From a virus, in IMG/VR virus record IMGVR_UViG_3300025093_000009, positions 32,001 to 96,000 of that record: a stretch of DNA of 64,000 nt; one strand, given 5' to 3'. Shown here one piece after another: positions 20,450 to 50,400 of the stretch. A program made the translations under genes and the position numbers. Each line of letters starts with the position of its first letter. Position 1 is the stretch's first letter. The notes under the pieces are model-generated. The model was not told the DNA's origin and did no database searches. It saw only the letters and a program-made list of their open reading frames with translations.

Positions 20450-21124
20450 ATGGCAACAATAGCACAAGTAATATCTAGAATAAGAGGTCAAGTAAAAGCT
20501 GAAGTTCAAGATGCTTTTGTGACTGATAGATATATCTATAGCTTGATAGAGAAACATGCCCAGTTTTTAATGAGAAGACAAGACTATGCAAACAAACTAT
20601 TAAAATTTAATTCAGTATGGAAAACACTTCCTTATGTAGAATTAGTTGAGGTAGATAAAGTTGAAGCTCATTGCGCTGGTATACAAAGTGGTTGTACAAT
20701 AAAACGTACAAAGTTAAAGTTACCTTCTATGTTTGAAGGATATTGGGGACCACTTATCCGTACTATTAGTTCAATAGACGGATCTCAAGAATTACAAGCT
20801 ACACAACCCGGTACTTATACATCTATGACAAAAACTACATCATTTAAATATAATAAGACATTATATTTTTGGTGGTTAGATGGTTATATATATTGTCCAA
20901 ATATACAATGGGATGCAATAAAAGTAGAAGGTGTATTTGATTCTGATATTACTAAATGGGACTGTGATACAGAAAATGATTGTACTCCTAGATATGAACA
21001 ACAAATGTATATACCTGAAGCATTATTTGCTGAGATTGAAAGTCAAGTTGTTGCAACAATGATGGGTACATTAAAAATACCATCTGAAGATTCAGATAAC
21101 AAACGTAACCTAGCAAGAACTTAA
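20450..21124 (+). CDS. Tail ring protein
   Basis: 224 aa; between the IHF-like and tail tubular genes. Confidence 0.55.
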   Translation: MATIAQVISRIRGQVKAEVQDAFVTDRYIYSLIEKHAQFLMRRQDYANKLLKFNSVWKTLPYVELVEVDKVEAHCAGIQSGCTIKRTKLKLPSMFEGYWGPLIRTISSIDGSQELQATQPGTYTSMTKTTSFKYNKTLYFWWLDGYIYCPNIQWDAIKVEGVFDSDITKWDCDTENDCTPRYEQQMYIPEALFAEIESQVVATMMGTLKIPSEDSDNKRNLART

Positions 21125-28100: not shown

Positions 28101-28273
28101 ATGGATATGTTAGACCATTAAATACAACTAATCTTAATTACTTCAAACCTCAAACAGAGCGTAAGAAATTTAGACATTATTCTAATCATGTTTTATTACG
28201 TAGAAATAATTCTGGCAATAGAAAAATGATGTTAAGATTAAATAATACTAAACTATTACTATCTAAAAGATAA
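22115..28273 (+). CDS. Tail stabilisation (muzzle) protein with inserted Cys-rich/VWA module
   Basis: NSFTKGMNKD N-terminus, GFMRDEQYAFFIRW and WTISY..WISFHDW motifs typical of crAss tail-stabilisation proteins; VDVVISMDVSGS MIDAS. Confidence 0.75.
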   Translation: MAKKKNTTPQPRGQGSSSVNTNSFTKGMNKDVAPSFEQPNAWWHARNAVNNSEDGDVGLIGNEPSNLSCGVIPYTVIGAIHRYGDEWVVFSTDDINSEIGRFDDSECTYETLVNDPCLNFKKKYLITGAAKENFDCTWEVYWDDANNPSRAMNIDDIPWKKVKISGPDVNGDPCVEYQIIEPKQLDCEQIRLAPLLDTPCVKLSKATDGGMIRNGTYQAFVAYVENEQRVTDYIGISNLQTIFSHEGGNGSLDISITNLDQDYFYYELVILRRNQGQTSAKRIGLYSTEQSDINIDFIDEALIPIDLKQIPLRSPAYEKSESMFVVNDWLIRQGPTEQFDFNYQPIANQIQTNWVVNQLSAKYYTLGGNKLGFMRDEQYAFFIRWIYNTGERSSSYHIPGRAPESYTLPNGVSYQENEIINGANVINTDEGEPLFKVYNTASFTQTNINEPQEDNSLVIARGKMGYWESTELYPSNRPDIWGDLCGKPIRHHKMPDESLGGADSPLHISTTNGDNINIVGVEFTNIGRPTNNDGTFIENIVGYEILRGSRQGARSILAKGMFKNMRKYRIPDSENILGESQGLYPNYPYNSLEDDIFFFDAGPDPNSEDTRTGGCDNFTQSLDKYPPLSGYTKDVFTFSAPDLMFTKPFLNAYETKIYGSINGKSQGTFIPSEDHPQFKLLRPVAANLAAIIGLGYALNAVQGTESVNTKALQINNQAYAPFIGVSSSTGYPTFATAGGVSLSLFGLIEGFLINSLLDGITDVADLYSGGVASQIKKEAINTSNMIKASAIPGAYGGGRDMTSTFDKPEGALPTALKVIISISMAQKNIAIGAGEIIDLFYNLVSEHDFVYKYNSTGFYNSFTKVNPNNIFRTKNNDSNYIGSSFQTFDGIKYKINNLFRPSTIAVSTANELDDPAGPKDNSRFSLGGTVVNGGTVDFLNSYMLNPRSADRLQRNISALYGALKFNFDNQYGQLDGVKQIMMRGCVELIDPDKPETFKYSTSPIFSGDVSINRYTEKCIMPIFTRFLQGQPNGYSFDYSLYVNIPYPRFWLNSTKFDISGIAREIATLGLDPGSYAQELPTNKYYLDRGYDNCQDTSLFGSFFGGGNDLNPAWNMEYAYMYTHINGVNEFFVESEINLAYRDWEDMPSKRFYDPYEFNDLGVLFHPDQIKDDNFYKYDDSLSASKFPTQLGSFGQVQARDYDPLVAETCYTSYPKRLVYSLQAQEESKRDYWRVFLNNNYKDFKNEVSVIKPINKSGALIFFPYLSPQMFQGLDTLKTQLDTKLTIGDGGLFSQPFQNVANADVSNEYGSCESLRGVTNTPFGLFFISQQQGKIFNYAGKGLTPISNAGMKWWFNKYLPSRFIKQFPESENTHWVDNPVAGVGCQVICDVVDDIVYFMKKDYQLKPEYVAGAEFNNYDAKPVGIDVPWQNKKLLVDIGDPLYFDDCSWTISYDPKAKAWISFHDWHPELALPSINHFFTTKTTTTTVPQCPPGYNFNPTTNMCEIGVNESSPAQVIIDNIAATVSGGPVACLVDVVISMDVSGSTLNSGRQAAQQTWMTAFLTDPQIVTLMNNSQMQIGFVAWDDNSNIMSMPDGSGGTVTMSHTVTEPQATTFFTNNWSAGGTNVGMGLNVGNSVLTNPANSTLGDRTANPNYRAIQILVTDTTTAPGNNVGAPYTSVGAGTAPAYQFVYAMFCGANSSAPPNPNVLDDISMSAGPVNVDPFQYGINASDPTTFQAVATAIAGAVCGTDYECECPAGYTLVYPDSNGLFTQSSGTCTDVPGEAPICRKVECECPTSTVPGSTTTTSGTCPDSAPELFLIGDPAWIDPSPLICNYFYFDSTTPNYQVGGFWRHNHRCDSFANFYNVDYPWEIDLISNTGQAVNTIRSFEYQLETYVYKGDPQYNMCGGDKWEDLTFNFDAAIIYNNDQTSGLLVLNEQPVNSPWANLDYPIVTPNNIEILVSKVEHKFRFNQFWDVTNDRGEFTNAEQPIFNTDCNGYVRPLNTTNLNYFKPQTERKKFRHYSNHVLLRRNNSGNRKMMLRLNNTKLLLSKR

Positions 28274-31200
28274 TGAAGAAGAAATTTACACATACAGAGA
28301 GAAGAGGATTACCTGGAGGACCTAATGAATACATTACTCATGTTAGTGGTTTATTCAGTGTTGAAGGTTATAAATCAGATAGCCCTGATAAAAACAATCC
28401 GTTTAATCTTATTGACTCAGGAAATATCACAATGGAAGGTGTTGAATTTCCAGTTATGGGTATAGATAATCTTGGTAATGCAGAAATGATGCTGCCTCAA
28501 AACAATTATGAATTTCCTGGTGATATGGTTTTAGAAATACCTATGGCACAGGATGGTGATGAAACTCCAATGGCAACTCAAATGTTAGATGAGGTTGTAG
28601 TTACAGCACCTAAGAAAAAACAAAGTTTATTTAGTAAAGTGGGTCACGGTGTTTTAGATGGGCTTGGTTTAATTCCTGGACTTGGTGAAATAGCAGATGG
28701 CGCTAATGCACTTTGGTATCTTGCTGAAGGTGATAAGATGAATGCGGGCTTATCTGCCGCTGCAATGATTCCATTTATAGGCTGGGGTGCAACAGCTGGT
28801 AAACTTGGTTTAAAAGGAAAGAAAGCTTTAGATGCTGCTAATACAGCAAGACAATTATCAAAGGCAGATTTAAATTATGCTAAAAGTTTAGGTTTAGATG
28901 TAAAAGATTATAATAACCTTGTTGATCAATATAATGCTTCTAATAAAACATATAGATCAGTGAGTCCTCAAGCTGATGTATTAAATGATATAAATTTTAG
29001 AAAGGCTGCAGAAAAAGCTGGTATTGATTTTAGCAAAACTGCAACAGATAATACAGATCTTCTTAAATATATGAGTACATCCATACCATATAAGAAATTA
29101 GGTAATGTATATACAGATGCTGCAGTTAAAGGTACTAATGATGCAAGATCATTTTTATTTACTTCACCCAATAAACAATTTACATCTTTTTATGCACCTG
29201 ATGGGTACATGGCTAAGATGCCTTTATTTACTGATGATATAAATAAATTAAGCATACCAGAAATAACAAACAGAATTAAGTTTGGATCTAGAGCAAGTGA
29301 GTATCCATTTGATGCATTGTTGGATAATCCATATATGCAGAATACTCTTAAATCAGGAACAAGAGTTTCTATGCCTCCAGCAAGTAAATTGGGTGTGCAA
29401 GAAAATACTGTTCAATTTATAGGTGATAGAGGACAAAGGCTTTTTGATCCTAACACGGTTGAAATATTACCAGTTGGAGAAGCACTTAAAAATCCAAATT
29501 TCCAAAAAGGTAAAGAGGTTCCACCAGAAAAATGGCAGGATACAATTAATTATATTGATGAAAATAAATTAAAAAGAGCAATTGCTGAAGCAGAAAGTTT
29601 AAATGGGCAGTTAATGAAAAACCCATACTCTACGGCATCTGGATTATACGGTCAACGTTTTTCAGAACTAGAGAAAGGAAAATTATATGATGGTACAAGA
29701 GATCAGTTTATAAAAGATTTAGATGCACAAAATAGAATATTTGATATGAGATTAAATGAAGGTGTTAAAGTAAATAAAACAACACCTTTACTAAAGGATG
29801 CATATGATCTTATGAATGAATACAAACCTCAAATAAAAGATTTTGATTTTGATTACTATGATATAATCTCATTATCAAACTTTTTAGGTAGACAAGGTAC
29901 CAGAGAATTTTTTGGAAATGTAATCAGGGATGGTAAAGATTTATCAGAGGTATTTCCTAATTTATATGGACCTAATGTTAAACAACCAAACAAAACACCT
30001 CAAGAATATTTAGGTATTACAAGAAAGTATTACAGACAATATGCTGGTGAAATTCCTGTTATTGCTCAAGATAACACAAGAGTTAATATGCCAACAATAC
30101 CTATCATTGATAAAAAGCCTGCACCTACCTCACGTTATTCTGATTTACTATTTACAGAAAATGATTTTGATATTATAGGTGATGATAAGGATGAATTCAA
30201 TCCTTTTGATACTATACCAATTGATACATTAGAAATACAAAGAGATAACACAAATGTTGTTGACACAAATATATTACCAGAGTATTTGCAAAAATATGAA
30301 AAGATAAAAGGACCTAATTTTTCAGATGAAGAATTTAAAAATATACTATTTGATGTTTCACAAGAGTCTGAGTTTAATGAATATCAAGATCCAGTACTAA
30401 TAGCTGATTTTATTAAAAAGTCTAATTTTTATGCAGAAGGGTGGAAAGATATGACTAGTGCTGCTCCTAATGAGGTAAAGGATTTACAAGATGTATTAGT
30501 TAGAAAAGGTTATGACATAGGCCCAACAGGTGTAGATGGAAAATATGGTCCAAAAACATATGCTGCACATAGAGCAATGGTTGATGATATTAATTTAAAT
30601 CCAAATGCTATATCAAGATATTATAAAAAATATGGTGCAAACAATTCATCTGAAGTAAGAGGTATTCAAGAGAAATTAGTTAAGCTTGGTTATATGTCTG
30701 AAACATTACCTAATAAAAATACTACTAGTATTGATGGTAAGTTTGGTGATCAGACTAGAGAAGCACTAGAAAGATATAACACAGAAAATGCAAAAGATGA
30801 TCCTAAAGCTACAGTCTTTAATGATATACCAAATCTATTAGAAGAAGATAGATGTGCTGCAGGTATGTGTGTAATACTTGAGAGAAATAATGTTCTTACA
30901 GAAGCTATAGGTGTTAAGTACAAAGATGCATGGGATTTATATGAATCTATGGAAAACGCAGATAATAGTGAAATGGTCTATAATATATATGATGATCCAA
31001 GATTTAACAGAATCAATGAAGAAACAGATATAAATGATCTAAGAAAGATTACTAAAAATGTAAAAAAAGAATCACAAACAAAAGCTAGTGATTATGCTAT
31101 AGGAGATATTGTAGGTTTATTTTGGGATGGTTCATCACATCATGCAGAAACATTAAAATCAAAAACTTATAATACACACAGTGGATTTGTTTCTGATATA

Positions 31201-32349
31201 GTAGATGGTGTTCCTATTATAACACATAATGTAAATGGTAGAGTATTACAACAACCATATGATCAACTTACTACTGCTTGGATTAGAAGACCAAATGAAG
31301 ATGTAGAAGTAAGATCTAAATATAATGAAACTGCTGTAACAGAAGCAGATGGTGAAGTACCTAATTATAATGCTATTAATAATCTTCAATTAAGATATAA
31401 TACTCAGTTTGAGGGAGAACGTTTAAATGAAGTTGAAACTATATTTAAGAGAGCAAAATATAATTCTCATAAGATACCAGAAATTTTAAATTCTGATGTT
31501 GATCAAGACTGGCTTGAGTCAGCAACAGTTGCTATAACAGGTGTTGAGTCAGGTATAGGTTTAAATGCACCAAGAACTGTAGAAGAAGCTAGAGATGATT
31601 ATTTTGGTTTGAAAGGTGTTGCATATGATATTAAAGATAAAACAGAAGCAGATATATCATTAGGTGTAGGAAAAACTAAATTTGCTTCTTTAGATAAATT
31701 TGCTAGAGAATATTTTGATATAAATAGTCCAAAAGATTTAGCTAATGATACAAAAGCAGTTGATGCTATAAGCTATACTCTTACTAAAAATTATGAGTTA
31801 TTTAAAGATTATGCAGAACAGTATCCAACTTTAGGTTTAACTGAAGAAGATATTAGAAACATGGCTGTATTAGCATATAACCAAGGAACAAATAAACTTA
31901 TTAATACAGGAAGAGTTGATGATACAAGAACACCTGAAGAAGAAGTAGAAGAACTTAGAAAACTATATAATGCTACCCTAGCGGATAGAAGTTCTACTAA
32001 CTATAGATTTTTACCTGAAATTGTATATGATGTTGCTTTAGCTACTGGTATAGAAGAAAAGTCACCAAGTTATATTAATAAGGTTAATACATATATAAAT
32101 GATTTATATCCTTCACAAGTAGCTGATGCTGGTGCTAATTTAAATAATCAAACTCCTAGAATTTTAGCAAAAGGTGGAGAGTACGGTATATATAAAAATT
32201 ACATTGAAGGGTTATATGATGATACTGACAAAATACAATTTGCAGAACATATATATGATAAACTAAATAGGAGACACTATAAACAAGCAAAAAATGCAGC
32301 AATGGCTGCTCCAAACTTTATAATGACAAACATAATTAGGAATTCTTAA
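28273..32349 (+). CDS. Multidomain virion cargo: PT-TG-like + putative toxin + two lysozyme/SLT-like + two PG-binding + CHAP/NlpC-like domains
   Basis: LDGLGLIPGLGEIADGANALWY..GD...AGLSAAAMIP; AEAES..NPYSTASGLYG; LQDVL..GY...DGKYGPKT and IQEKL..GY...DGKFGDQT; RCAAG..DAW..GDIV..HSG..HN; GVESG..AYNQG. Confidence 0.7.
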   Translation: MKKKFTHTERRGLPGGPNEYITHVSGLFSVEGYKSDSPDKNNPFNLIDSGNITMEGVEFPVMGIDNLGNAEMMLPQNNYEFPGDMVLEIPMAQDGDETPMATQMLDEVVVTAPKKKQSLFSKVGHGVLDGLGLIPGLGEIADGANALWYLAEGDKMNAGLSAAAMIPFIGWGATAGKLGLKGKKALDAANTARQLSKADLNYAKSLGLDVKDYNNLVDQYNASNKTYRSVSPQADVLNDINFRKAAEKAGIDFSKTATDNTDLLKYMSTSIPYKKLGNVYTDAAVKGTNDARSFLFTSPNKQFTSFYAPDGYMAKMPLFTDDINKLSIPEITNRIKFGSRASEYPFDALLDNPYMQNTLKSGTRVSMPPASKLGVQENTVQFIGDRGQRLFDPNTVEILPVGEALKNPNFQKGKEVPPEKWQDTINYIDENKLKRAIAEAESLNGQLMKNPYSTASGLYGQRFSELEKGKLYDGTRDQFIKDLDAQNRIFDMRLNEGVKVNKTTPLLKDAYDLMNEYKPQIKDFDFDYYDIISLSNFLGRQGTREFFGNVIRDGKDLSEVFPNLYGPNVKQPNKTPQEYLGITRKYYRQYAGEIPVIAQDNTRVNMPTIPIIDKKPAPTSRYSDLLFTENDFDIIGDDKDEFNPFDTIPIDTLEIQRDNTNVVDTNILPEYLQKYEKIKGPNFSDEEFKNILFDVSQESEFNEYQDPVLIADFIKKSNFYAEGWKDMTSAAPNEVKDLQDVLVRKGYDIGPTGVDGKYGPKTYAAHRAMVDDINLNPNAISRYYKKYGANNSSEVRGIQEKLVKLGYMSETLPNKNTTSIDGKFGDQTREALERYNTENAKDDPKATVFNDIPNLLEEDRCAAGMCVILERNNVLTEAIGVKYKDAWDLYESMENADNSEMVYNIYDDPRFNRINEETDINDLRKITKNVKKESQTKASDYAIGDIVGLFWDGSSHHAETLKSKTYNTHSGFVSDIVDGVPIITHNVNGRVLQQPYDQLTTAWIRRPNEDVEVRSKYNETAVTEADGEVPNYNAINNLQLRYNTQFEGERLNEVETIFKRAKYNSHKIPEILNSDVDQDWLESATVAITGVESGIGLNAPRTVEEARDDYFGLKGVAYDIKDKTEADISLGVGKTKFASLDKFAREYFDINSPKDLANDTKAVDAISYTLTKNYELFKDYAEQYPTLGLTEEDIRNMAVLAYNQGTNKLINTGRVDDTRTPEEEVEELRKLYNATLADRSSTNYRFLPEIVYDVALATGIEEKSPSYINKVNTYINDLYPSQVADAGANLNNQTPRILAKGGEYGIYKNYIEGLYDDTDKIQFAEHIYDKLNRRHYKQAKNAAMAAPNFIMTNIIRNS

Positions 32350-32382
32350 ACCATAAAGATTAGCGAATCTCCTTAATTATTT

Positions 32383-32390
32383 GTATATTA
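32383..32390 (+). promoter_or_regulatory. GTATATTA putative phage promoter motif
   Basis: TTTGTATATTA 10 nt before ATG 32401. Confidence 0.45.
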
Positions 32391-32400
32391 ATAATATAAT

Positions 32401-35124
32401 ATGATGAACGTGGATTTAAACAAAAAAAGTGTAAAACAGCAGGGTGGTCAGCAAATGATTCCTAATGAACCTGGTATGCAACAGCAACCGCAGGTTGATC
32501 CACAGGTTATGCAAATAGCTGAAATGTTCAACCAATCAATAGAATCTGGCCAAAAACCAGAAGAAGTTGTTGTTATGCTTATGGAACAAGGGGCTGATCA
32601 AAATATTATAGGTCAAGCACTTATGCAAGTAGGTATGGCTCAAGAAGATGTGGTTGTTATTTTTGAAAACGTACAAAAAATGCAACAACCTAAAGCACCT
32701 ACAGCTGAACAAATTACAAATAATCCACAACAACTGGCTAGAGAAGAAGAGATACAAGAGGATGCACCTAATATGGATATACCTATTGATCCTATAGAGA
32801 TGGCTAAATCAGGTATTGAAATTAAGCCTGAGAATAAAGGTAAGTTTACTAGATGGGCTAAAGCACGTGGTATGTCAGTTGCTCAAGCATATAAAAAAGT
32901 ATTAGCTAATAAAGAAAAGTATCCTCCTTCTGTAGTTAAGATGGCAAACTTTGCACGTAATGCAGCTGGTTGGAAAAAAGGACAAGAAGGTGTTGAAATG
33001 CCAAGTGAAGGTTTACCTGTACAAGATCCATCTGTTTTGCAAAGAATGCAAATTAAACTTCGTGACTTAATAAAAAGTAATGAAGTAAGCCAGGCTCCAT
33101 ATGATATACAAGGTATGATTCCTCCAGGTTACGTACCAAATCCAATGCAAACATTTGAATTTAGAGATGCAAATCAAAATGGTATTGAAGATAGGGATGA
33201 AGGTATTTATAAACAAAGAGATTTAATACGTGAAGAAGATTTACCTAAAGGAAAGGCAATAGGAAGAACTTTTTGGGGAAAAAGCAGTGGTGTACCTTGG
33301 CCTACTATGGATATTCCGGGCAAATATGCTCAACCTAAATTACAAGGTGGGGGTGATAATTATGATGCTGTAAAAGCTGCAATGCTTCAGGGAGACAAAG
33401 TAGGAACAGACATGCAAAATCAATTGGCATCTTTTATGAACCAAGTTAATTTTGTTGATACAAGTAAACCTAAAGAAAAAGACAATAGAAACTTTATTGA
33501 CAAAGGACAAGATGAAGGCGTATTAAATCCAGGACCATTATATGTAAATCCAGCTATATATAATAATAACAAATTTAATCTAGGTAAAGCAGCAAATGTT
33601 TTATTAGAGGGTTATGAAAATATGTTTAGCGGTAAGGATAAAGATGGTGATGGTGTCAAAGATGGAAGCTTTAGAGATTGGAGAGGTAAGGCTATAAAGA
33701 ATAAGTTGGATAAATATAGAAATGCAACTTATACTATAAACTATGATGGTAGTGCGGAGAACATTCAAGCTATGAAAGATTTCCAAACTCAATTTATGAA
33801 AGAAAATCAAGATTCAACACCAGAAGAATTAATTGAAAATACAGCAAAATATACAGAACAAGGTTTTCTTGATGGTATAGAGAATTTAAATTTAGATCCT
33901 AAAATAAAAACTTTTTTAACTAAAAGTACAGAGGGAATGTCTGATGCTGCAATACAGGCATATCAAGATCTTAGAGCTAAGATATTAAAAGACCGTGGTA
34001 TAGAAATAGAAGAAGATACTTCAGTAGAAGTAGAAGATACTACAGTAGAAGATACTAAAGTAAATGAAACTGATCCTAATTTTATAGGACCACCAGAAGC
34101 TCCTACTGATGAAGATATAGATGAAGATATAGTAATTAAATATGGTGCTGAAGTATTACCTAAAGCATTATTTGGTTTTGGTAAAAGAGCAAGACAAGCT
34201 AAACAAAAGATAAAAGAAGATCCAATATCATTTGCAAGACTAATGGCAGGAGATGTAACAGCTGCAACTGCATTTATGCAAACAGGTGGTGCGCCATTTG
34301 CAGATCAAACACTTACTTTTCAAGAATGGTTTATGCAAGATCCTATAACTAGAAGTGGACCAAACGCTCAGCAAGAATATGAAGCCTATGTTCAACAACA
34401 AGAAGGTCCACAATTAGGTCCTGTACAAACAGATACACCTTCATTAGAGGATGCAAATACTGGTACTTATTCACCAATGGTAGATAAAGATAAAGATGGT
34501 ATTCCTGATTATATAGATATTGATGGTGGTGATGGATCAGGGAAAGGTGCTCCAGGTACTGTAGATCCATCCCCTTCTGCGGAAGAACTCTATGCAAAAA
34601 TTAAGAAACCTGAAGTAGATGTAAATACAGGAGGTTTAAAAGGATTTTTAGATAGAGTTAAGAACAGCACTGTTGCTACAGCATTTGGTGATGTTTCTGA
34701 TTTTGCTGTTAAAGCTGCAGATGTAGCTAATGATTACTTTGCTCAAAAAGAGCAAGAAGAGGCAATGGATGATTTGAGAGTAAGTTTATCTGCAGATAAT
34801 ATATATGGTACAAAAACAGATGCCTTTAATAAAAGAGGAACGTTTGATGTAAACACAGGTATAATGGGTAGTGAAGGTGACGCAACTACTGGATTATATC
34901 TTACAAAAAAAGGTGGAGAGTTTAAACCACATATGATGTATGATCCTAAAAATGGTAAAGGGTATATGGCTAATAAGATGGAGGATCATTTAAGAATGAA
35001 AGAAATGGGTTACCTACATAAAGAAGAGTTAGGCAAAGCTAAACAAGGTGGAGAAACAGTTAGTGTTGATTCAGCAATGTTAGCAAAACTAATTGCAGCG
35101 GGAGCTGACATAGAAATGTTATAA
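32401..35124 (+). CDS. Low-complexity modular virion cargo protein
   Basis: Q/P-rich and acidic stretches, DxDxDG motifs, small basic modules bounded by KxGG-type motifs. Confidence 0.6.
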   Translation: MMNVDLNKKSVKQQGGQQMIPNEPGMQQQPQVDPQVMQIAEMFNQSIESGQKPEEVVVMLMEQGADQNIIGQALMQVGMAQEDVVVIFENVQKMQQPKAPTAEQITNNPQQLAREEEIQEDAPNMDIPIDPIEMAKSGIEIKPENKGKFTRWAKARGMSVAQAYKKVLANKEKYPPSVVKMANFARNAAGWKKGQEGVEMPSEGLPVQDPSVLQRMQIKLRDLIKSNEVSQAPYDIQGMIPPGYVPNPMQTFEFRDANQNGIEDRDEGIYKQRDLIREEDLPKGKAIGRTFWGKSSGVPWPTMDIPGKYAQPKLQGGGDNYDAVKAAMLQGDKVGTDMQNQLASFMNQVNFVDTSKPKEKDNRNFIDKGQDEGVLNPGPLYVNPAIYNNNKFNLGKAANVLLEGYENMFSGKDKDGDGVKDGSFRDWRGKAIKNKLDKYRNATYTINYDGSAENIQAMKDFQTQFMKENQDSTPEELIENTAKYTEQGFLDGIENLNLDPKIKTFLTKSTEGMSDAAIQAYQDLRAKILKDRGIEIEEDTSVEVEDTTVEDTKVNETDPNFIGPPEAPTDEDIDEDIVIKYGAEVLPKALFGFGKRARQAKQKIKEDPISFARLMAGDVTAATAFMQTGGAPFADQTLTFQEWFMQDPITRSGPNAQQEYEAYVQQQEGPQLGPVQTDTPSLEDANTGTYSPMVDKDKDGIPDYIDIDGGDGSGKGAPGTVDPSPSAEELYAKIKKPEVDVNTGGLKGFLDRVKNSTVATAFGDVSDFAVKAADVANDYFAQKEQEEAMDDLRVSLSADNIYGTKTDAFNKRGTFDVNTGIMGSEGDATTGLYLTKKGGEFKPHMMYDPKNGKGYMANKMEDHLRMKEMGYLHKEELGKAKQGGETVSVDSAMLAKLIAAGADIEML

Positions 35125-35126
35125 TT

Positions 35127-38060
35127 ATGGCAAAAATTAAAATAAATAAATTACCAAAAGGATTTAAGTTAGTTGACGGCAAAGTAGTTGAAGACAAACT
35201 TATGCAACGTGGTGGTGGGCTTACATCTGGTGATCAAGCTGATTATGGTTTGGTTACAACTCCAGAACAATATTATGGTCTTACAAATTTTAATAATACA
35301 CAAGATGAGACTGTAAGATATTCTTTAGGTGCTGTACCTAGAGATGAAGCTAATTTAGAAGCTGAGGGTGGAGAAACTGTATTAACAGATTTAAATAATG
35401 ATGGTATGTTTGGTCTTTACAATATTACAGGACCAAGACATAACAGAGGTGGAGTACCAATGTTTTTACCAGAACAGTCTTTTGTTTTTTCTGATACAAG
35501 AGCTTTAAGAATGAGCCCTGATGAAATGCAAGAGTTTGGTATAGGTGGTAGTAGAAAAACGCCAGCTGTACTTTCTAGACGTTTTGGATTACAAGATTAT
35601 TATGCTGAATTAGACTCACAGTATGCTGATGATATTTCTGCTAGAAGTGCAGAGCTTATGTTGCAAAAAAATATGGGAGATTTATCTAAGCTTGCCTTTA
35701 TACAAGAAGCAAAAAAAGATTTCCAAGACGGTGTACCATTAGCATCATACCCATACTTAGCATCTATAGGAGAAGACCCTATAGCATTTACAGCTAAGAT
35801 GGAAGAGATATCAGAACAAAAAGCTCAAGAAAGAGCATTCCAAGCTTTACCACCTGAGCAACAACAACAGATATTAATGTTGCAAGAGTTTATGGCACAA
35901 CAGCAAATGTCACAAGAAGGCATGCCTCCACAAGGTATGGAACAACAAATGCAACCACAACAACCAACAGCTCAACAACAAGAGTTGGGTATGGCAATAG
36001 CTAATAATGATATGCTAATGACTGCTCAGTTTGGTACTGAAATGGGTGATTTCTTAGGTAAAGCTGGTTTAACTAAATATCAAAAGAAAGGTGAGACAGC
36101 TTCTCAATATGCTAAAAGAAAAGGACAAAGTTGGCCAGAAGGTGCAAAAGATCCTACATTTGATGGCAAAGTATGGCAGTTTCCAGATGGAACACCACCA
36201 TTAGACAAACAAGCTGCAAGAACTTTAGCTATAGCAGTTGCAACTGGTAGTCCAATACCACCTCAGTATATGAAAGATACTAATGCTTCTGATAATACTG
36301 AATCATCTACACAAGATGAAGAAGTAACTATTAATGAAAATGAAGAACTTAATACTGAAGATCAAACTGTAGAGGTTAAAGAAACTAAAGTAGTATCTGA
36401 AAACCAGGTTGATAAAGTTGAGTCAGGTAACAATCCGTTTAAAGAAGGTTCAGCTAATTATAAAAAGCATAATGAATATGTAAATGGTGGATATACACCT
36501 ACTATCATAACAGAAAATGGTAAGAAAAGAGTTAAATATGTTAGACCTGCAACAGAGTTTGATTATAGTCAATATGCAGACAGGCTTAAAAATGTAACAA
36601 AGACTGAAGTTAAAGGATCAGATGGTAAAACATATTCTGTTTATTCTGATGATGTAACTGGTCAGCAGCAAATAACCAATGAGTCTGGTGCTGCCATATT
36701 TATACCAGGATTATATTCTGCATCTGATTCACCTGTTACACAATACAGTAATAGATACGGATTTGGTTCTGATGAATTTTTTGAAGATAAATCAAAAGAA
36801 GATTTTTATTTTAGAAATAAAGCAATCATTGATAAAATTCCTGACTTTCAATTTAAGATGGAAAGAGATGCTGATGGGGATAAAAAGACTGATCAAGCAT
36901 ATATTGATAACTGGCTTAAGTTTCAAAACGCATATGAGGATGAGCGTAAGAAATACATGGAAGCTCAAGGCCTTACTTACATTCCTTACTTTATTTCTGA
37001 TGAAGAGTTTAAAGCTCATCCAGAAAAATATGACAAAGATGGAGATGGTAAGATAGATGATGACTTTAAGAAAAGAAGACTAGATGGTAAAGCAGGTGTA
37101 TTTACTATAAATGCTCCTGGTTTTGATATAGGTTATGAACCTGGAGATACACAGTATTTAGATGTACCAGATGATCCAAAAACACCACCTATACCAAAAG
37201 ATACACCACTTCCTCCAAGAGAATGGTGGCAGCAGGACATTAATAATTTATTGACTCTTAATGCAATAGAGGATGAGTTGTTTTTACCGTGGGCTCCTGA
37301 GTTAGAAGATCAAAAGATAGATTATGTATTAGATGACTATACAGGAAGAGTAAATGCTAATCTAGCAGCTCAGAATGTAATGGCTAATGCATTAGGTGCT
37401 TATGGTCCACAAGCTATTGCTAGAAGTGATATACAAGGTAAAACTTTAGATGCAAATGCTAAAGCTATAAACCAAGTAAATCAGAATAATGTTAGAACAA
37501 TGAACCGTGTTGCAGCTTTACAACCTCAGCTTGATATGAAAGTTGATATACAAAATGCTAAAACACAAAAAGGTTTATATGATGATACTGTAACTGCATT
37601 ACAACAAGCTCAGAATTTTGATAATTGGAAAACTGCTAAGTATAATGAATTGTATAATACAGGATTGACTAATGCAGCTAATACTTACAACCTCAATACT
37701 TTATATGATACTTATAATGTAGATCCAAGGTCTGGTGGTTATGTAGAGTTTACTCCTGATGGTAGAATGTTATATAAAGATAGTTCAGCTGATCAAGAAC
37801 AAATTAGAATTGAAAGACTACAAAAGCTTCAAGAATTATTTCCAGGTAAAGCTCATGAAAATTATCCTATAGTATATGGTGATAATGTAAATGCTACAGA
37901 AGGTATGACAAATGCTCAAGTTGAGGCACAACGAAGAGGTGGTTTTCCATCTTATAGTCCAACAGGTAATGTTAATGTAAACCAAGGTAAAAAAGGAACA
38001 GAAGTAAAAAAGAAATATAGAAAAGCATTCCCGTTTTCAGTGGGACAGATGGGTTATTAA
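35127..38060 (+). CDS. Virion cargo (ejection) protein
   Basis: ANLEAEGGETV...GPRHNRGGVP module, Q-rich linker, C-terminal N/Q/A-rich helical region; lies between muzzle and vRNAP. Confidence 0.6.
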   Translation: MAKIKINKLPKGFKLVDGKVVEDKLMQRGGGLTSGDQADYGLVTTPEQYYGLTNFNNTQDETVRYSLGAVPRDEANLEAEGGETVLTDLNNDGMFGLYNITGPRHNRGGVPMFLPEQSFVFSDTRALRMSPDEMQEFGIGGSRKTPAVLSRRFGLQDYYAELDSQYADDISARSAELMLQKNMGDLSKLAFIQEAKKDFQDGVPLASYPYLASIGEDPIAFTAKMEEISEQKAQERAFQALPPEQQQQILMLQEFMAQQQMSQEGMPPQGMEQQMQPQQPTAQQQELGMAIANNDMLMTAQFGTEMGDFLGKAGLTKYQKKGETASQYAKRKGQSWPEGAKDPTFDGKVWQFPDGTPPLDKQAARTLAIAVATGSPIPPQYMKDTNASDNTESSTQDEEVTINENEELNTEDQTVEVKETKVVSENQVDKVESGNNPFKEGSANYKKHNEYVNGGYTPTIITENGKKRVKYVRPATEFDYSQYADRLKNVTKTEVKGSDGKTYSVYSDDVTGQQQITNESGAAIFIPGLYSASDSPVTQYSNRYGFGSDEFFEDKSKEDFYFRNKAIIDKIPDFQFKMERDADGDKKTDQAYIDNWLKFQNAYEDERKKYMEAQGLTYIPYFISDEEFKAHPEKYDKDGDGKIDDDFKKRRLDGKAGVFTINAPGFDIGYEPGDTQYLDVPDDPKTPPIPKDTPLPPREWWQQDINNLLTLNAIEDELFLPWAPELEDQKIDYVLDDYTGRVNANLAAQNVMANALGAYGPQAIARSDIQGKTLDANAKAINQVNQNNVRTMNRVAALQPQLDMKVDIQNAKTQKGLYDDTVTALQQAQNFDNWKTAKYNELYNTGLTNAANTYNLNTLYDTYNVDPRSGGYVEFTPDGRMLYKDSSADQEQIRIERLQKLQELFPGKAHENYPIVYGDNVNATEGMTNAQVEAQRRGGFPSYSPTGNVNVNQGKKGTEVKKKYRKAFPFSVGQMGY

Positions 38061-41418: not shown

Positions 41419-44400
41419 ATGGAGAATCAATCTAAAACGCCATTAAATAGCGCTATTGAACAATCTCAGAGACCTGCCCCACAGAGTATTATACCTGAAG
41501 GGCAGTTCAAGTTTACCCCTATTGAGGAAATGTTTGAAACCCCAGAGGAGATAAACACTAAGAATGTTCTAGCAGATCCAGACTTTTATGCTGGTTTAAA
41601 TGCTGCTAAGCCAATGATTGATAAGTATGGCATTAATGCTATGGCTAGTTTAGGTGTTGCTCCAAGCTATTCTTCAGATACATTTAATCCAACAGACCAA
41701 GAGAAACCATTAGATATTTATGATGTTGCAGGAAACATGAAAGCTGCAATGACTTTAACTCCAAAGTCTCAGGCTGAAGTTCCTGTTTCTCCTACCTTTT
41801 CTGGTGCAAGGCAAACTCAATTTATGAGATACTATGAGCATCCAGAGTTTGATGATTTAGGATATTCTCCTACTTCAAGTATGGAAAACTACTATAACGC
41901 AAACTCAACTATTTGGGATGACTTTACTAGAATGCGTAGTCAATGGTGGAGTGTTGCAGCAGGTGGTTTTGCAAGTGTATATAACTCATATGGTAGCTTA
42001 TTTAGTGGAAATTATTTAGAGCCAGATTTAGATGGTGCTAGTGATTACGCTGATGCTATGGGTATTATGTCTAGTTCAAGAGATGGGGCATTAGCATTTA
42101 CAAATAATTTATTTGCTAACTCTGCATACACTATGGGTATTATTGGATCTGTAGCATTTGAAGAACTTTTATTAGCAGGAGCCACATATCTTTCTGGTGG
42201 TTCTGCTGCACCTGTAGCTGTTGCTAGAACAGGTTTTAATATTGCAAAATTAGGTAAAGCAATATATAGAATAAAAGATATAGGTAAATATTCAAGAACT
42301 ATTTTACAACAAGCAAGAAATCTAGATACTGCAAGAGATTTTTGGACTGCTGCTAAAAGTGGTGGTAAAGTAGTAGCTAATGGATTAGGTAATGCATTTA
42401 CTCCAAATAGTGTAGCAGCAATTAAATCTTTAAAGACAGCAAAGAATACAGGTCAAAACTTATCTAATATGGCCAAAGCATCTGTTGCTTTTGGTGGATT
42501 TTATAGAGATATCCAAATGGTAAACCTTGCAATGGCAGAAGCTAAGCTAGAGTCAGGTATGGTATACAATGATGTAATGGCTCAAGGTATGAATGACTTG
42601 AGTGCACAAAAAGGTGGTAAAGCATTAACTGAAGAAGAAGTAGCAAGAATACAACGTAGTGCAGATAAGGCACAATTTTACACCTTAATGGCAAATGCCC
42701 CATTAATTTATGCAAGTAACTGGTTTGTGTTAGGTACTGCATTTCGTGGATTCAAAGGTGCCATTGCTAAATCATTAGGTAACACTTTTGCCAGTGGTGT
42801 ACAAAAAGGTATAGTTAATACTGCTGGTAAAAAAGCAGTAGATAGTGCTGGTAAAAAGATTTTAAGTCCTTTTAAAAATGCTGGCCGAGGTTGGAAAGGT
42901 TTTACAGCAAAAGTAAAAGCAGGTGGTTGGAGAGGTTTAGTTGGCTCAGGTGCATTAGCAAGTTTAGATTATTTTGCTGCGAATATTGCAGAAGGTGTTC
43001 AAGAGGTTGGTCAAGAAGCTATAGCAGCAGCAACTAAAGGTTATTATGGAGAAGTAATAAAAGATCCTACTGCAGGTGGTGAGGCACTACAAAAAGAAAT
43101 GATGTTGTCTGCAATGGGTAGTCAATTTTCAGAAGAAGGTTTAGAAGTATTTATGTCTGGTTTTCTAATGGGTGGGTTAGTTAGTCTGCCCCAGAAAGCA
43201 TTTTTCCAGGGTGTACCTTCAATTTATAACTATGGTTTATTTGGTATGGGTACCAAAGCACAAAAAGAAGCCTATGCTGAGCATAAAGCCAATAGAGAAG
43301 AATTTATAAATAACCTTGTTGAAGTATACAATAAAGCATGGGATAATCAAGCAATTGATCCAACAGAGATGCTTGATCCAAATAAAATGAACTTTAATAT
43401 ACAAAAACAAGTTGCTGAAAACATGAAGCAAAATGTATATTCTAAAGATTTATTTGGTTTTATTGATCAAAAAGATTTTGCTAAGTTTCAACAATACTAT
43501 ACAATATTTGCGGGTGGTAAGGCTAGTGCGTTTAGAAATCAAATAGAAGCATTCCAAAAATTATCTGATGAAGAATTATCAGAAGCATTTCCTGAGTTAA
43601 CCAAGGATGAAATCAAAAGTGGTAAAGCACGTGAGCGTATGCAAGACACTCTTGACCGTATGGATAAAGCAGAGAAAATGTTTTTTGAGGTTGAAGAAAA
43701 GTTTCCTAATCCTTTTGATAAAAAGAAGTTCAATAGAAAAACTCAACCACGTGAGTATGAACAAGAAGCATATAGACAGGCTGCTTATGAGCATGCTAAG
43801 TATTTATATATGTTTACTAATAGCACGTTTGTTAGAGCAACAGAAAGAGCAAATGATTTATTTAGTAGACTAGAAAGTGAGCCTTTGTTTGATGGAATGG
43901 CTGCTAAAGATTTAACTGTGCTATTAGATGTTGACTCTATTGATAGAGAAATAACATTGTTAACAGCAGAGATTGCTGCTACAAAAGGGGCTGATCAAGG
44001 TATTGGAGAAACAAATAAAGTAAAAGCTGAAAAAATTAAAAGACTTCAAGCTTTTAAAAAGTTTGTTAGTGATCCTAAGTTTACAAAGAAAGATGGTTCT
44101 TTTGATAGAAGAAGAATGAATGCTTTGAGAAGAGAGTTTAGAAACTATGTTAGATACATGGCTTCTACTTCTGGTGCTTTTGTAAGTGAAGATGCTATGA
44201 ATGAAGCTCTTGATATGATAGTAGATTATGGTGCCTTAAAAGGTAGACAGAAGACCTATTATAAAGCATTGGAGTATTTGGGTAACCCAGAAAGAATAGC
44301 AGAAATATCTGATAGACAATATCAAGTAAACAAAGAGTTAGGTGATAGACGTGCTGAGTTAGTTAGAGAAGCAGCAGAACAATATACAGATATTATTGAG

Positions 44401-47400
44401 GCAAATGAATTAGTAAACCAACTTGGAAAACTTGGTATATATCCTGATTTAGTACAGGTAAGTGCATTTCTTAAAACTGGAAATGCAGATTACTTAACAG
44501 ACTTTTATGATGATTATGGTTATGTAGATCCAAAAAATAATAAAGCAAGGTATGATCAAATAGAAAGACTTTTAAATGCTTACAAAGAAACAAGAAGAGA
44601 AAAACAAACAGAACAAGCAGAAAAAACTGAAGAGGATATTGCGTCAGAAGCAGCGGAAGAAACGAGAACAGCTTTAGATCAAATTCTTGATGATGCTGGT
44701 TTACCTCCTATAGATATTGATAGTAGTAGGATAACACCTATGTTAGATGAGATCCTAAGAAATCAGTATAGAAAATATGCAGCTCAACAGGCATTGCTAG
44801 ATGGTGAACCTCTTAGTCCAGAAGAATGGAATAACAGTAAGCAAGCTAAAAATATTAAAGCAACATTTATTGCAATGAAAAAAGTTTGGGCAGCTGGACC
44901 AATGACAGCTGATCCAAATGGCAATGTTATGTATAATAAGCCTGTAGAAAAACAGTTCTTAGAAACTGATGAGGGTTTTGCAGAGTTTTTATCTTCTCCT
45001 GATAGATTGGCACAAACACCAATTTTAACAACTGTATTAAATCAATCTGACTTAACGTTAAATGATTTTGTAGAACTAGAGGATATAGATGTTACAGAAG
45101 GTGAGGCTTTCCAGGGTAATCAAGCACAAACTGTATATAAAGAAGGACAAACTGCTAATGTTATTGAGTATACTATCATAGATCCTCAAACAGATGCAGT
45201 AACTAAACAATACCGTATACTAGATAAAAAAGGTAATGAACTATCTAAGGAACAAATAGAATTCTTAGATAGTAATTATGGATCTGTATTTGGAACATTC
45301 TTAGATGCGTCAAGAGCAAAAGAAGCATTAGTAATGGGCTTAGATGCAAATGTACCTGATTCAGCACCATTTGCTTTTGATGGTGTTACTGACTTACATC
45401 AAGGTATGCAGGTGATGAAAGATGGTATTAAATATATTATCTTAAGTACTCCAAAGCAAGCAGCAAAAGGTGTATTAAGAATTATTGATGTAACCAAGAA
45501 AAACGGAACTAAAAAAGAAAAAGATAAAGCTACTGTAAAAGTATATCCTGGACAGTTTAATGGATCATACATACCTATTGTTGCTGATTTTAGTTTATTA
45601 TCAGACAACGTTAGTAGAATCAAAAGTCAAGATTTATTTACTATGTATCCTCACGTCACTTATGGTGGGGTAACTGATTTGGATGAGCGTAGAGCTATTT
45701 TAGCACAAGCTAAAGAAAGCTTTAATTATATTATGACACAACTATCTCCAAAACAAATGGAAAGTTTAGAGTTAGTTGTTATGCTAGATCCAAAAGGCGG
45801 TACATTAACACAAGATCAATTAGCTGTTGAAGACATTGCTGGTAATAAATACGGTGAATCAAATCCTTTAATTAAAAGATATAGAAGTAAATATTACATA
45901 GGAATTAGATTGGGTAGTGAAGATCTAAGACAAGAGCTTCTTAACAATTGGCCTGAAGATATAACACCAAGTATTAGCTCTGATGGTATCTTTGGTTATA
46001 TAAATACAGATGCATACTCAATATTTGATCAAGAAACAAGACAAGAAATTGATCCTAGAAACATGAATTCTAGACAAGCTTCTAATACTGTTTTACCTAT
46101 TAAATCTAATGAGTTAACTAAAGATGAAAAGCTAGAGGCTGTTAGAAAAGCCTTTACATTAAATGCTTTAATTAGTCAGACATTTGACTCATATGATTTT
46201 ACTGATGGCCCATTATATTTTCAAAACGGTACACTACCATTTACAATTTCACTAGATGTAAAAGGTGGAAGAGTTGTTTTTGATAAAAAAGATAAAAAGC
46301 TAGATGCACTTGCTTATAACACAGCAGATGATGCAGGTAATATTTTTGTTTTTAACTTAAGAGCTAATCCTGAAGTAGCTGGTACTAGAACTTTAGATTA
46401 TAATACAACAGCACAAGGAGATGAAAGGGTAAAATTATTTGATGATATTATAGCTGGTTTAGATCTGCAAAATCAAGCAAATATATTAAGCGGACCTGAT
46501 AGATATGTTGCTATTGTAAAATTACCAAATGGTAAGTATGCTAAAGTAAATCTTAAACCTACTAGTTTAACAGAGGAGGAAAGAAATGCTTTATTTGTTA
46601 AAGTTGTAGATAAAGCAATAACAGTAGGTAAGATTACTGATGAAGCTAAAGCAACAGAAGAAGCATATGATTTTAATAATAAAATAGATCTTGAAGATCT
46701 GTTTATTAGTTCTGTACCAGGAAATCACATTGAGTTAAAAGTTGGAAAAGATGGTAGTATATTTTTCTCATTAGACAATAAACAACTTGAAGAGACTATA
46801 AACATAGGTCTTACACCTGAAGAAGTAAATTCAACTGATACACAGCAAGAAAAGTTAGAAACTCTTATTAGTAAATTTAATGAGGATGCCCGTGTTAAAG
46901 CTGCAAAAGCGGTCCTTAAACCAAAGAACTTTAGAAGAACATTTAGCAATGAAGCTAAGGTTGAAACTATAGTAGAAAACTCTACAACACAAGTTGATCC
47001 AAAAGTTATAACAGGACAAACTATTATTGTTGGTGCTAGCTCAGAAGCATTACAAAGTGCTGGTAATGTACCTTTTATTCCTAGATCTAAAAGACAGAAG
47101 GTAGAAAGTCAAGAGGAAGTAGAAAATAGTAAGAGACCAGAAACTGCAGAAGAAGCAGAAGAAAGTGTATTAGATCAATCTGATGCAGAGTTTAATGACA
47201 ACTTATCAAATGATTTTGCAGATAATCAAGAAAGTATTGATCATTTAATAAATAAAATTTTAAGAGGTGAAGAACTTTCTCCACGTGAAGAAGAGATGAT
47301 GAACAACTCTGTTATTGCAAACAGTGTTAATTTTAAAGTTGCAACATTGGGTGGTCCTGGTTCTATGAGTACTTCAACTGAAACTCCAAAGAAAGAAACA

Positions 47401-50400
47401 AAATTAGATGAAGTAAAAAGAGATATAGAAAACTTAGAAAGAGAACTTACAGAAGGTTTATCTGGAAAAGAAAAGTATAAAGCTTTAGATGAAAGTAAAG
47501 AATATCAAAGACTTCTTAAACTACGTAAGTCACTAGAGAGTGGTGCTAATAAACTTGTTGGTGCTACTACAGAAGTGCAAAGAGTAGAAGATTACAATGA
47601 ATTCTTAGATTGGGCAAGTGCAAACTTACCTGATAACTTCTCTATAGAAGATCTTACTACTATAGCGGATAATGGTGTAAACGCAGGTTACCAAAGAGTT
47701 GGTGCTTTTGTTTTAAATCTTAACCGTATAGCAGGAGGGATTACAGTGGATGGTGTAATCTACACTAGTGCAACAAGTCCATTTAAATATCATGAGGCTT
47801 TTCATGGTGTATTTAGAATGTTACTATCACAAGAAGACATAAATAAATACAGAAGGATTGCTAAAAGAGAAGTAAAAGCTAAATACGGCAATAAATACAA
47901 AGAGACTCTAGAAAGATTTAGAAACAGCGCTGAGAAGTATCAGGGTATGACTCAAGAACAATTAGAAAATGAGTTTGCTGAAGAGTACATGGCAGATGAG
48001 TTTGAAAAGTTCAAGATGAATCCTAAGTCTAGTAAGACAGATGCAGATGTAAAGAATCTATTTACTAGAATTATTGAGTTTATAAAAGCAGTATTCTCTA
48101 GATATACTACTAATGAATTACAAACACTATTTGAAAATATAGATTCAGGTAAGTATAGAGATGCTAATCCACAGACAAATGAGTTTACAACGTTAGATGA
48201 TAGTCTAAGTGGTAATATGAGTATTGCCAATGCATTAATTAGATATGATTCTAAACAAGAGACTAGAACCGGTAATGATGTAGGATATTTATATTTAGAT
48301 ACAGATATAGCAGATACTATTGTCAGATCTATGGCAGCTATGTTTGTAAAGCAAGTACAAGATTTAAAATTATTAGGAGAAGACCAATTTAGTCCACAAT
48401 CAATGATGGATGATCTTTTACTAGAATTCAGATTATTATATGATACATCTAGTATACACAATGCTGGTATACAAGGACCAAAAAGAGAAGTACTCCAAAC
48501 AATTGAAGATGCTTTCAAAACATATCCAGAAGACATTAAAAAAGAAGTATTAGCATTAGTTAACATTATTGCAGACATGCCTGCAAATAAAGAACTAAGA
48601 ATAGATGAAACTGAAGACACATTAGGATTAAGATCTGTTAGTGAGTTTGATAAAGAGGCTTCTATGATAGGTGGGTTTAACTCTTTAAGTTTTAAACTGC
48701 GTTCATATATTGCTACTACAACTATGGCTGAGACAGACTACTTTGGTAATAAGACATTAGCAAATGGTCAAGAGTTAATTGTTCCAGTTAAATTTAATGA
48801 AGTCTATAATGGTTTACTAAAAGCTGTAAAAAATACAGAGAGCCATGTAGATATGTTGAAAAGAGCATATTCTTTTTCTAGATTAAATCCTCAGATGAAG
48901 GCTGTTGTTGACAGACTTCTAAATGATGTTGGTGTAACACCAGAAGAATTGAGTTCTGATGCTCCATTAGCTAATGTAAAAGACGGTGCTTTATTGCAGT
49001 CAATATTAAAAGGTTTCCAAAATAGTAGACTAGATTACATATTTGTTGAAAGAGACAGCAGTGGTGGTATACTTATTTATAAAGCTACAGATAGAGATAA
49101 TGTTAATTCTCAATTAGACCAGTGGTCTCAAGCTTATATTAATAGAAGGAAGTTATATACTAGTGATCCAAATAGAAAGATACGTTTAGTTGATCTTGTA
49201 AAATCCATACAAGAAGATATGGACTCTGACACAGGAAGCTTTGTGGATATGCAAGCAAAATCTAAAAACTATACAGAAAGACTTTTTGACTTAACAGGTT
49301 TAAGAATTAGTCCTCTATATATGTTATACACTTTAGGTCAGACTATACCAGCAGCAAATAGAGATCCTCAAACACAAATTCTTATTGATGGTTTTTCTGA
49401 ACAGTCACCAATGTCATATACATTACTGACTGAATTAAATCAGGCTTTCCAACAAAATAGAAATATATTTTCTAAAAGCCAAGCGGGTTTATCTTCTAGA
49501 CTTGCAACACTAGCTGTTCAAAACGCAGCATTTGATGAGTCAGTTGGTGCCACATCTTTTGTTAATCCAAACAATGATTTGGTTTTTGCTCATCAACTAC
49601 CAACGTTGCATACTAGAGCAATACAAAGTTTGAATAATGAGGAAACAATAAAGAATCTAGAGGCTGATGACTTCTTAAAAAACAATTACTTATTAAATAA
49701 TGAAGCATTTAGAAATCTTTCTAAAGAACAAAAGCTTCAAGTAATAAGACTTGCAGGTAGTAAAATTAAAGATAAGATTTTAGAAGATGGTTCTGAAACA
49801 AATGAGGATCTGTTAAATTCATCTTTAAAACCTAATAAAGCTACACAGGCTTTTGGTGAGTTCACTCCACAAGAGTTTGCTTTAGAGTTAATCAATTTAT
49901 ATACTGCTGAATTTAATACTAGAAGTGGTGTTGTATCTTCTGTAGAAGGTTTGGGTAAAACTCAAGTTGGTTTGTCTCCTACTTTTATTAGAGTTATGGA
50001 GGCTTCAAACACTGGTGATTTGGTAACACTACCTATAATTAAGGCTGTTACAATGAAAGGTGACAAGGTAGAACTTACTCCTCAACTTATCAATGTGTTT
50101 TATTCTAGTATAGAAAATGAATACTTAAGAATAGCAAGAGAAGCAAGAAGGTTATCAGTATTTGAAAATACAGGAGTTGATCCCGAAGGATTATCAAACA
50201 TCCAAGGTTATAATGACAGTAGAGAAGGTAGAGCGTTTAGTTTCTTTAACAATGGTAATGTATTTGATGGGGCAACTCAAGATGCTTTAGTTGAAGAAGC
50301 TTTTAGATCTGTTGAGTCAGATAACCCAGCTTTAACTCTTAATCAAGCACTTAAGGGGGCTGGTAAAACACCAGCTTCTGTAAGAGCAGATATTAAAAGA

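Follow-up and report, generated by a model that had tools for sequence, protein, structure and literature searches.

The virion polyproteins of adenovirus and African swine fever virus (ASFV) are matured at Gly-Gly sites, and the head proteases of phages T4 and phiKZ trim internal proteins, a process involving capsid targeting sequences and x-x-Glu sites (the consensus of the phiKZ enzyme is S/A/G-x-E). The present work deals with a short peptide motif, denoted here as the seam, that recurs in three adjacent genes for putative cargo proteins (P0001, P0002, and P0003) of an environmental crAss-like phage. These genes lie on a stretch of 64,000 nucleotides (the window; positions 32,001 to 96,000 of IMG/VR record IMGVR_UViG_3300025093_000009), whose host record is a single virus record of 116,157 bp, rated 100% complete by CheckV. 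The seam is a conserved peptide of the form bulky residue-[K/Q]-x-G-G-(E), usually with Glu at the end, and is found at the borders of small exchangeable modules.

The phage crAss001 is the only one among these phages for which virion mass spectrometry (MS) data exist, and the cargo proteins gp45 and gp46 were detected in its virions (Bayfield et al., 2023; PMC10172136). Density for gp45 shows a tail-barrel helix (residues 214-245) and a portal-bound domain (residues 425-552), with 12 copies (PMC10172136). Proteolysis, a scaffold, or a protease are not reported in that study, and the motif is not mentioned (PMC10172136). For the polyvalent proteins of phages and conjugative elements (Iyer et al., 2017), embedded zincin-like peptidases have been proposed to process the proteins harboring them (PMC5512222). 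The virion polymerase of phage N4 also carries an HExxH domain (PMC13434306) and is packaged unprocessed (PMC5512222).

The seam motif and its distribution

The window is the virion block of a crAss-like phage with a 116-kb genome. The three open reading frames (ORFs) harboring the seam follow one another on the same strand:

28273..32349, + strand: cargo gene A (P0001), 1358 amino acids (aa), from ORF and translation
32401..35124, + strand: cargo gene B (P0002), 907 aa, predicted small folded islands joined by disordered linkers
35127..38060, + strand: cargo gene C (P0003), 977 aa, variable middle part between conserved N- and C-terminal domains

An original prediction, made from the DNA letters and their translations, had listed 16 peptide strings in these genes as copies of a [QK]-x-G-[GE]-like motif, and all 16 are present at the listed positions in the three adjacent + strand ORFs. 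Within the window alone, the enrichment is modest, about twofold for the loose motif: [QK].G[GE] occurs 10 times in the three ORFs (seven times in P0002) versus 5.0 times after shuffling (p about 0.02), at a density of 3.1 per 1000 aa versus 1.1 in the other ORFs of the window. A strict core, [AKQR][KQR]GGE, is found three times in the three ORFs (0.1 after shuffling) and nowhere else in the window, and GG alone is not enriched in the three ORFs.

A scan of viral contigs with the P0003 alignment yielded 80 syntenic loci with the gene order muzzle - A - B - C - D - giant, of which 28 dereplicated loci were kept for clade-level counts. A, B, and C denote proteins resembling P0001, P0002, and P0003, respectively, D the next protein, E the giant polymerase-associated protein, and M the muzzle protein. 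Among these 28 relatives, [KQ].GGE was observed 44 times in B (1.8 after shuffling), 19 times in A (1.4), four times in C (1.7), once in D (1.1), four times in E (2.7), and not at all in M (0.4). The refined motif, which was defined post hoc from the data and counted in relatives that are non-independent samples, exceeds the expectation from composition 13-24 times in A and B and stays at background level in D and E of the same genomes. The motif is hence more frequent than composition predicts, and the muzzle, D, and giant proteins are at background level.

Tripeptide counts point to the same peptide: GGE ranks fourth among the over-represented tripeptides of B proteins (66 versus 13.3), and MAQ is the most over-represented one in A proteins (16 versus 1.5). 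At 68 non-redundant sites, the position two before GG is occupied by K or Q in 49 cases, the residue preceding K/Q is mostly M, K, A, Y, or L, and positions farther out are hardly informative. In A and B there are also 26 copies of a companion motif, PKAQxG, to which the LPKA of P0002 is related, with about 0 expected. The seam codons follow background usage and are freely replaced by synonymous ones, so that the target of selection is the peptide rather than the DNA; a fixed DNA-level recombination signal at the seam was rejected on the same grounds. Tiny basic proteins carrying the motif were not found among window ORFs of at least 60 aa. The seam motif is real, and literature searches found no published description of it or of crassvirus cargo proteolysis.

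Seams at module borders and cassette exchange

The original prediction placed the motif at apparent domain borders. Nine module types were defined by regular expressions, and a GG pair was scored within 8-12 residues upstream of each. GG is found at most 12 aa upstream of the PHMMY module in 18 of 18 cargo proteins, and likewise for YLANRD (13/13), GFKALP (16/16), the C-terminal module of A (16/16 relatives), and a zinc ribbon (4/4); for the C-terminal module of B it lies within 10 aa in 26 of 27 relatives. Six unrelated mini-module families thus have GG directly upstream in 96-100% of cases, compared with about 10% for random anchors, which upholds the claimed border position. LysM domains have GG upstream in 6 of 13 cases, and the single FPTLF-type cassette matched has none. 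A listing of every GGE in A and B likewise places it upstream of PHMMY, YLANRDRVIK, LysM, the C-terminal helix of B, and the C-terminal module of A.

In contigs from outside the crassviruses, acidic residues rather than GG precede PHMMY, so that the seam belongs to the cargo context rather than to the module. PHMMY itself is a mini-module of 34 residues (EFKPHMMYDPKTGKGY...H.RMKK.GY.H; 34918-35019, P0002 residues 840-873) shared at 60-79% identity by dozens of unrelated marine viral contigs (loci L008-L082), where the proteins harboring it differ in length and architecture. A viral-contig scan with P0002 returned four full-length relatives and dozens of unrelated contigs matching residues 840-873 only. 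Pfam provides no name for PHMMY, KGKFT, the FPTLF cassette, or the C-terminal modules, and PHMMY is also without a name in the source records.

The proteins are built as mosaics, with the motif marking the limits of exchangeable modules, in line with the swappable modules that had been proposed. After the KGKFT module of B, the window has no further module, L006 carries PHMMY, and L007 carries YLANRD; near the C terminus of B, PHMMY is found in the window and in L007, and two YLANRD copies in L006. In L008, PHMMY resides in the variable middle of the C protein, between GGE and KAQFG. Domain gain and loss had been expected at the motif, and one case is exact: P0001 and its 95% identical orthologue in L004 differ by one insert of 92 residues, located directly after FQKG[KR]EV and ending in MQKGQET. 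This cassette is flanked by QKGxE repeats, with the DNA direct repeat CAAAAAGGTnnnGAGnnnCCA. Over all pairs, 120 indel breakpoints lie near [KQ].GG versus 48 expected, a count that is supportive only, as the alignments (45-60% identity) are noisy and the pairs non-independent.

Other A orthologues show further cassettes. An FPTLF cassette fills the site at 29520 that is empty in the window, and a zinc ribbon (CxxCGWxW...CHKCG) following KRGGG forms a seam-flanked mini-module in A orthologues (among them L093 and L089) that is absent from the window. In L004 (8001-10657), the P0002 orthologue (84% identical) is frameshifted near residue 183, and translation of the remainder starts at an internal TTG; either an assembly error or a broken gene could account for this.

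Predicted structure of P0002

An AlphaFold2 (AF2) model of P0002 was built from 36 orthologues and scored by the predicted local distance difference test (pLDDT). It shows folded islands at about residues 30-100, 141-190, 390-480, 600-670, and 720-795. All eight P0002 seams fall in linkers with pLDDT below 50 that flank these islands; about 54% of residues are below 50, and chance placement has a probability of about 0.7%. According to the model, the P0002 seams sit in predicted disordered linkers.

The individual sites

Alignments with orthologues allowed the 16 sites to be graded. About nine, those starting at 28543, 29500, 32164, 32434, 32800, 34903, 35038, 35202, and 37986, stand as conserved seams at a module or cassette junction, whereas six others are looser variants and one is weak:

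28543..28557, + strand: seam MAQDG, closes the conserved N-terminal domain of A; orthologues have PMAQ[DE]G
29500..29520, + strand: seam FQKGKEV, empty cassette site; the 92-aa insert of L004 is located here
30034..30051, + strand: RQYAGE, weak loose match; L006 keeps AG only; no module border
32164..32181, + strand: seam LAKGGE, precedes the C-terminal module of A (32182-32346)
32434..32448, + strand: seam KQQGG, 15 residues into B, ahead of the first folded island; conserved in orthologues
32800..32814, + strand: seam MAKSG, precedes the KGKFT module (32815-32979)
32980..32991, + strand: seam variant GQEG, follows the KGKFT module; relatives have WKKEEGGE and then a PHMMY or YLANRD module
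33340..33354, + strand: seam LQGGG, G317 invariant in a 4-way alignment; predicted disordered segment
34135..34152, + strand: seam variant IKYGAE followed by an LPKA motif; Y581, P587, and K588 invariant
34276..34290, + strand: seam MQTGG, in a break with pLDDT below 50 (residues 627-635) between two predicted helices; close relatives only
34903..34920, + strand: seam TKKGGE, precedes the PHMMY mini-module (34918-35019)
35038..35055, + strand: seam AKQGGE, precedes the invariant C-terminal helix of B (35056-35121); G883 nearly invariant
35202..35216, + strand: seam MQRGG, residues 26-30 of C; G30 and G31 invariant
36024..36041, + strand: seam variant AQFGTE, where the variable middle of C begins; L007 has MAQEGGE at the aligned position
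36078..36095, + strand: seam variant YQKKGE, variable middle of C; retained in a close relative only
37986..38003, + strand: seam variant GKKGTE, precedes the short basic C-terminal tail of C; K955 and G957 invariant

In the LAKGGE seam of P0001, K1300, G1301, G1302, and E1303 are all invariant in the alignment. A, B, and C each carry a seam near the N terminus (residues 15-31); that of B, KQQGG, lies in a segment with pLDDT below 50 (residues 1-29) before the island 30-100. The AKSG preceding KGKFT is conserved in the clade of the window, and GG is found at this place in the gut crassviruses cr128_1, cr108_1, and crAss001.

Genomic context and probable assignment as cargo proteins

The window has a high AT content, and almost all of its large genes are on the + strand. 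Its crAss-like affiliation follows from PHROG matches to the major head protein, a virion structural protein, and a tail fibre, and tail ring protein 2 is matched at 20450-21121 (Pfam CrAss_Ring_2, E 1e-17). Directly upstream of P0001 lies a protein of 2052 aa that matches virion structural protein PHROGs, and downstream of P0003 follow proteins of 1095, 4567, and 1925 aa in that order. The slot between the gene for the muzzle ('stabilization') protein and the polymerase genes has the same order in cr128_1, cr108_1, and crAss001, where it is occupied by the cargo proteins gp45 and gp46. Residues 114-205 of P0002 are 38-51% identical to the syntenic proteins of cr128_1 and cr108_1, and the KGKFT module is also visible in crAss001 gp45. 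Gene position and this one shared module make it most likely that P0001, P0002, and P0003 are packaged and injected cargo proteins.

Across the syntenic loci, the length of A ranges from 406 to 2276 aa and that of B from 518 to 1307 aa; C, D, and the giant protein are stable. Searches among GenBank phages found no near-identical DNA and, by tblastn with P0003, no match. The portal-binding domain crAss_CARG1 (PF25725) is matched by crAss001 gp45 (E 2e-66); P0001, P0002, and P0003 gave no match to it. A homology of the N-terminal domains of P0001 and P0003 to gp45 CARG1, suggested by eye, was dropped (hhalign probability about 1%, with shallow profiles).

P0001 has a conserved domain at its N terminus and a conserved module at its C terminus, in addition to variable cassettes and two peptidoglycan-binding repeats. 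The two PG_binding_1 repeats (30460-30792) are above threshold (E 4.8e-11) and accompanied by endolysin PHROG matches; Amidase_6-like and SLT-like regions (30820-32142) are sub-threshold (E about 0.05) and serve as leads only. This domain content suggests that P0001 is a virion-borne cell-wall-degrading cargo protein. For its variable N-terminal cassette (residues 100-420; 28570-29532), Pfam gives no match, and a protein atlas yields weak leads only (scores 0.75-0.84; ART-PolyVal in 12% of one cluster, and a diphtheria-toxin cluster).

Elsewhere in the virion block, a DNA repair exonuclease-like gene (18601-19815; phrog_704, E 1.5e-42) lies between the fibre genes and the tail ring gene, and a 735-aa protein of the fibre region (15702-17906) combines a fibronectin type III domain with the start of a von Willebrand A domain.

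Interpretation of the seam

The reading favoured over three rivals, and given an even chance of being correct, is that the seam is an uncut flexible hinge or docking junction in ejection proteins built like a string of beads. These proteins consist of modules of about 20-130 residues with low-complexity linkers between them, the modules being drawn from a pool common to many other marine phages. Almost all modules have a seam directly in front of them, and seams are also found close to each N terminus and ahead of short C-terminal tails. As a hinge, and perhaps also a docking handle, the seam would allow these long proteins to be stored and then passed, one module after another, through the portal and the tail channel. 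The short repeats arising from the seam may also serve as sites at which cassettes are gained or lost by recombination. Of the system originally envisaged, in which effector modules are strung together, packaged, and cut or released at the motif, the module mosaic, the cassette indel at the motif, and the position of the cargo genes are retained, whereas proteolytic release is not.

Several points weigh against a hinge or docking junction. A motif of 5-6 residues with a positioned K/Q and a near-fixed Glu exceeds the needs of a plain linker and resembles a recognition site. The seams at residues 15-31 and those before short C-terminal tails, present in all three proteins, resemble the trimming of leaders and tails. 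The overall confidence of the P0002 model is low (mean pLDDT 51). The integrity of the gp45 chain was left untested in the crAss001 study, and the gp45 MS peptides quoted there contain no gp45 GG pair (PMC10172136). Finally, the cargo block encodes one candidate peptidase motif, in the giant protein:

47791..47805, + strand: HEAFH (HExxH), residue 2125 of the 4567-aa ORF at 41419-55122, the only candidate peptidase motif in the cargo block

Of 27 relatives, 20 show this YHEAFH in the part of the protein that was fetched; among the A orthologues, 6 of 22 have HExxH cassettes, P0001 of the window not being one of them.

These last observations lend themselves to a first rival, held to be possible although doubtful, in which the seams are cleavage sites: a phage or host protease would act on GG, or on the bond following GGE, either inside the capsid or once the proteins have been ejected, thereby trimming leaders and tails and freeing mini-effectors. 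The motif information spans P5 to P1', the seams lie in linkers predicted to be exposed and disordered, leader-like N-terminal seams are restricted to A, B, and C, and the consensus of the phiKZ head protease, S/A/G-x-E, accommodates G-G-E. A conserved HExxH in a co-located giant protein, together with the HExxH cassettes of some A orthologues, recalls the embedded zincin-like peptidases proposed to process polyvalent phage proteins (PMC5512222), and GGE is mildly depleted in the giant protein itself (12 versus 21.9). In a more specific version, an unlikely one, the seam would be recognized by a protease, either a host enzyme or one carried in the virion (perhaps the HExxH domain of the giant protein), and this protease would dice the cargo, in the capsid or in the cell, into dozens of small peptides and enzymes.

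The enzymes that could perform such cuts were searched for in the 116-kb genome. Peptidase_S77 and Peptidase_S78 gave no match at E<=1, nor did Peptidase_C5 (adenain) and Peptidase_C48 (Ulp1-like) at the same threshold, which a very divergent enzyme could escape; C39 and MPTase-PolyVal (PF18818) were not matched in the genome either, and a homologue of the crAss001 aspartyl protease gp66 was not found there. The HExxH-bearing giant family counts 251 homologues and has a nearly invariant EE..AD..F about 60 residues downstream of the motif. For the HExxH region, however, no zincin match was obtained by sequence or fold: Pfam and PDB sequence searches gave no relevant match, and its AF2 model (mean pLDDT 68) gave no Foldseek match at E<=0.001 and helical-hairpin matches only with VIA-align (Z<=7.3). 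The part downstream of it shows a weak likeness to the N-terminal part of the phi14:2 virion RNA polymerase (6vr4_B, Z 6.5). The N4 virion polymerase, moreover, has an HExxH domain (PMC13434306) yet is packaged unprocessed (PMC5512222).

The structure of gp45 also bears on cleavage. This protein contains GG pairs at residues 209-210, 263-264, 332-333, 373-374, 427-428, and 562-563, of which 209-210, 427-428, and 562-563 bracket the resolved pieces 214-245 and 425-552. Since the density from A425 onward includes the seam A-F-G-G-W (425-429), the seam at 427-428 is intact, i.e. uncut, in the mature crAss001 virion. The proposal that the motif is a site of cutting or processing found no evidence in its favour, with no match in the genome to any of the peptidase families sought and the gp45 seam intact.

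A second rival, considered quite unlikely, regards the seam as a loading or docking tag whose copies bind a symmetric part of the virion (e.g. the portal wing or the lumen of the tail barrel) or else a packaging factor, setting incorporation and exit order. In gp45, a GG pair lies no more than five residues from the start of each resolved piece, the pieces being attached to the tail barrel and to the portal in 12 copies, and the motif is confined to A, B, and C, structural proteins lacking it; on the other side, polymerase-associated proteins, which are also expected to be cargo, lack the motif, so that it cannot be a general loading signal, and the seams per protein outnumber the known binding sites.

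The weakest rival, with only a slight chance of being right, denies the seam a dedicated function and sees in it a generic helix-stop/helix-start signature (Lys/Gln, Gly, Gly, Glu) or a recombination passenger inflated by shared ancestry, as would suit the weak enrichment in the window alone, the inheritance of several seams at fixed positions (e.g. at the C-terminal modules), and the short DNA repeats expected at a cassette border from recombination regardless, but it is countered by the six unrelated module families that carry the seam, by PHMMY lacking GG outside crassviruses, by the 13-24-fold enrichment in A and B against background in D and E of the same genomes, and by the GG kept at equivalent borders in very distant gut crassviruses.

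Crassviruses are among the most abundant phages of the human gut and are common in the sea, and the question concerned is how several megadaltons of protein are loaded and ejected. The seam predicts module borders in otherwise unannotatable proteins, marks the places of cassette exchange, and pinpoints the residues that matter for deciding between threading of intact cargo and cutting. The mini-modules that it bounds occur in many unrelated marine phages and have no functional name from Pfam or homologue records. Were the dicing of cargo true, a few polyproteins would encode a programmable, recombining library of mini-effectors for injection by crassviruses.

Comparison with known systems

The virion polyproteins of adenovirus and ASFV share with the proteins described here a Gly-Gly core after a bulky residue and, probably, a destination in the virion. 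They differ in that no clan CE protease was found in the genome of the window and no cleavage products are known; compared with adenovirus, the seam would have its bulky residue at P5 and K/Q at P4 if cut after GG. The targets of the T4 and phiKZ head proteases are packaged and injected proteins with short N-terminal leaders, as the proteins described here may also be, and GGE would fit their pattern of a small residue-x-Glu; Peptidase_S77/S78 was not found in the genome of the window, however, and no processing is reported for crassviruses.

The polyvalent proteins are, similarly, large multi-module proteins delivered together with DNA and evolving as mosaics (PMC5512222). For them, however, no junction motif was defined, PF18818 was not detected in the genome of the window, and most modules of the window proteins are tiny peptides lacking a catalytic signature.

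The closest parallel is gp45 of crAss001 (PDB 7QOG, 7QOI, 7QOJ, 7QOL, and 8CKB). Differences exist in gene number (three cargo genes in the window versus two in crAss001) and in sequence, with no overall similarity of gp45 to P0001-P0003 and a null profile comparison. The seams differ as well: those of gp45 are mostly aromatic-x-GG, while those of the window clade carry K/Q and a following Glu, a residue that is absent in the very distant gut crassviruses, which keep GG at equivalent module borders. Nevertheless, gp45 occupies the same genomic slot, shares the KGKFT module with P0002, and has its modules bracketed by GG pairs, and gp45-type proteins end in KGG plus a short basic tail, as C does after GKKGTE.

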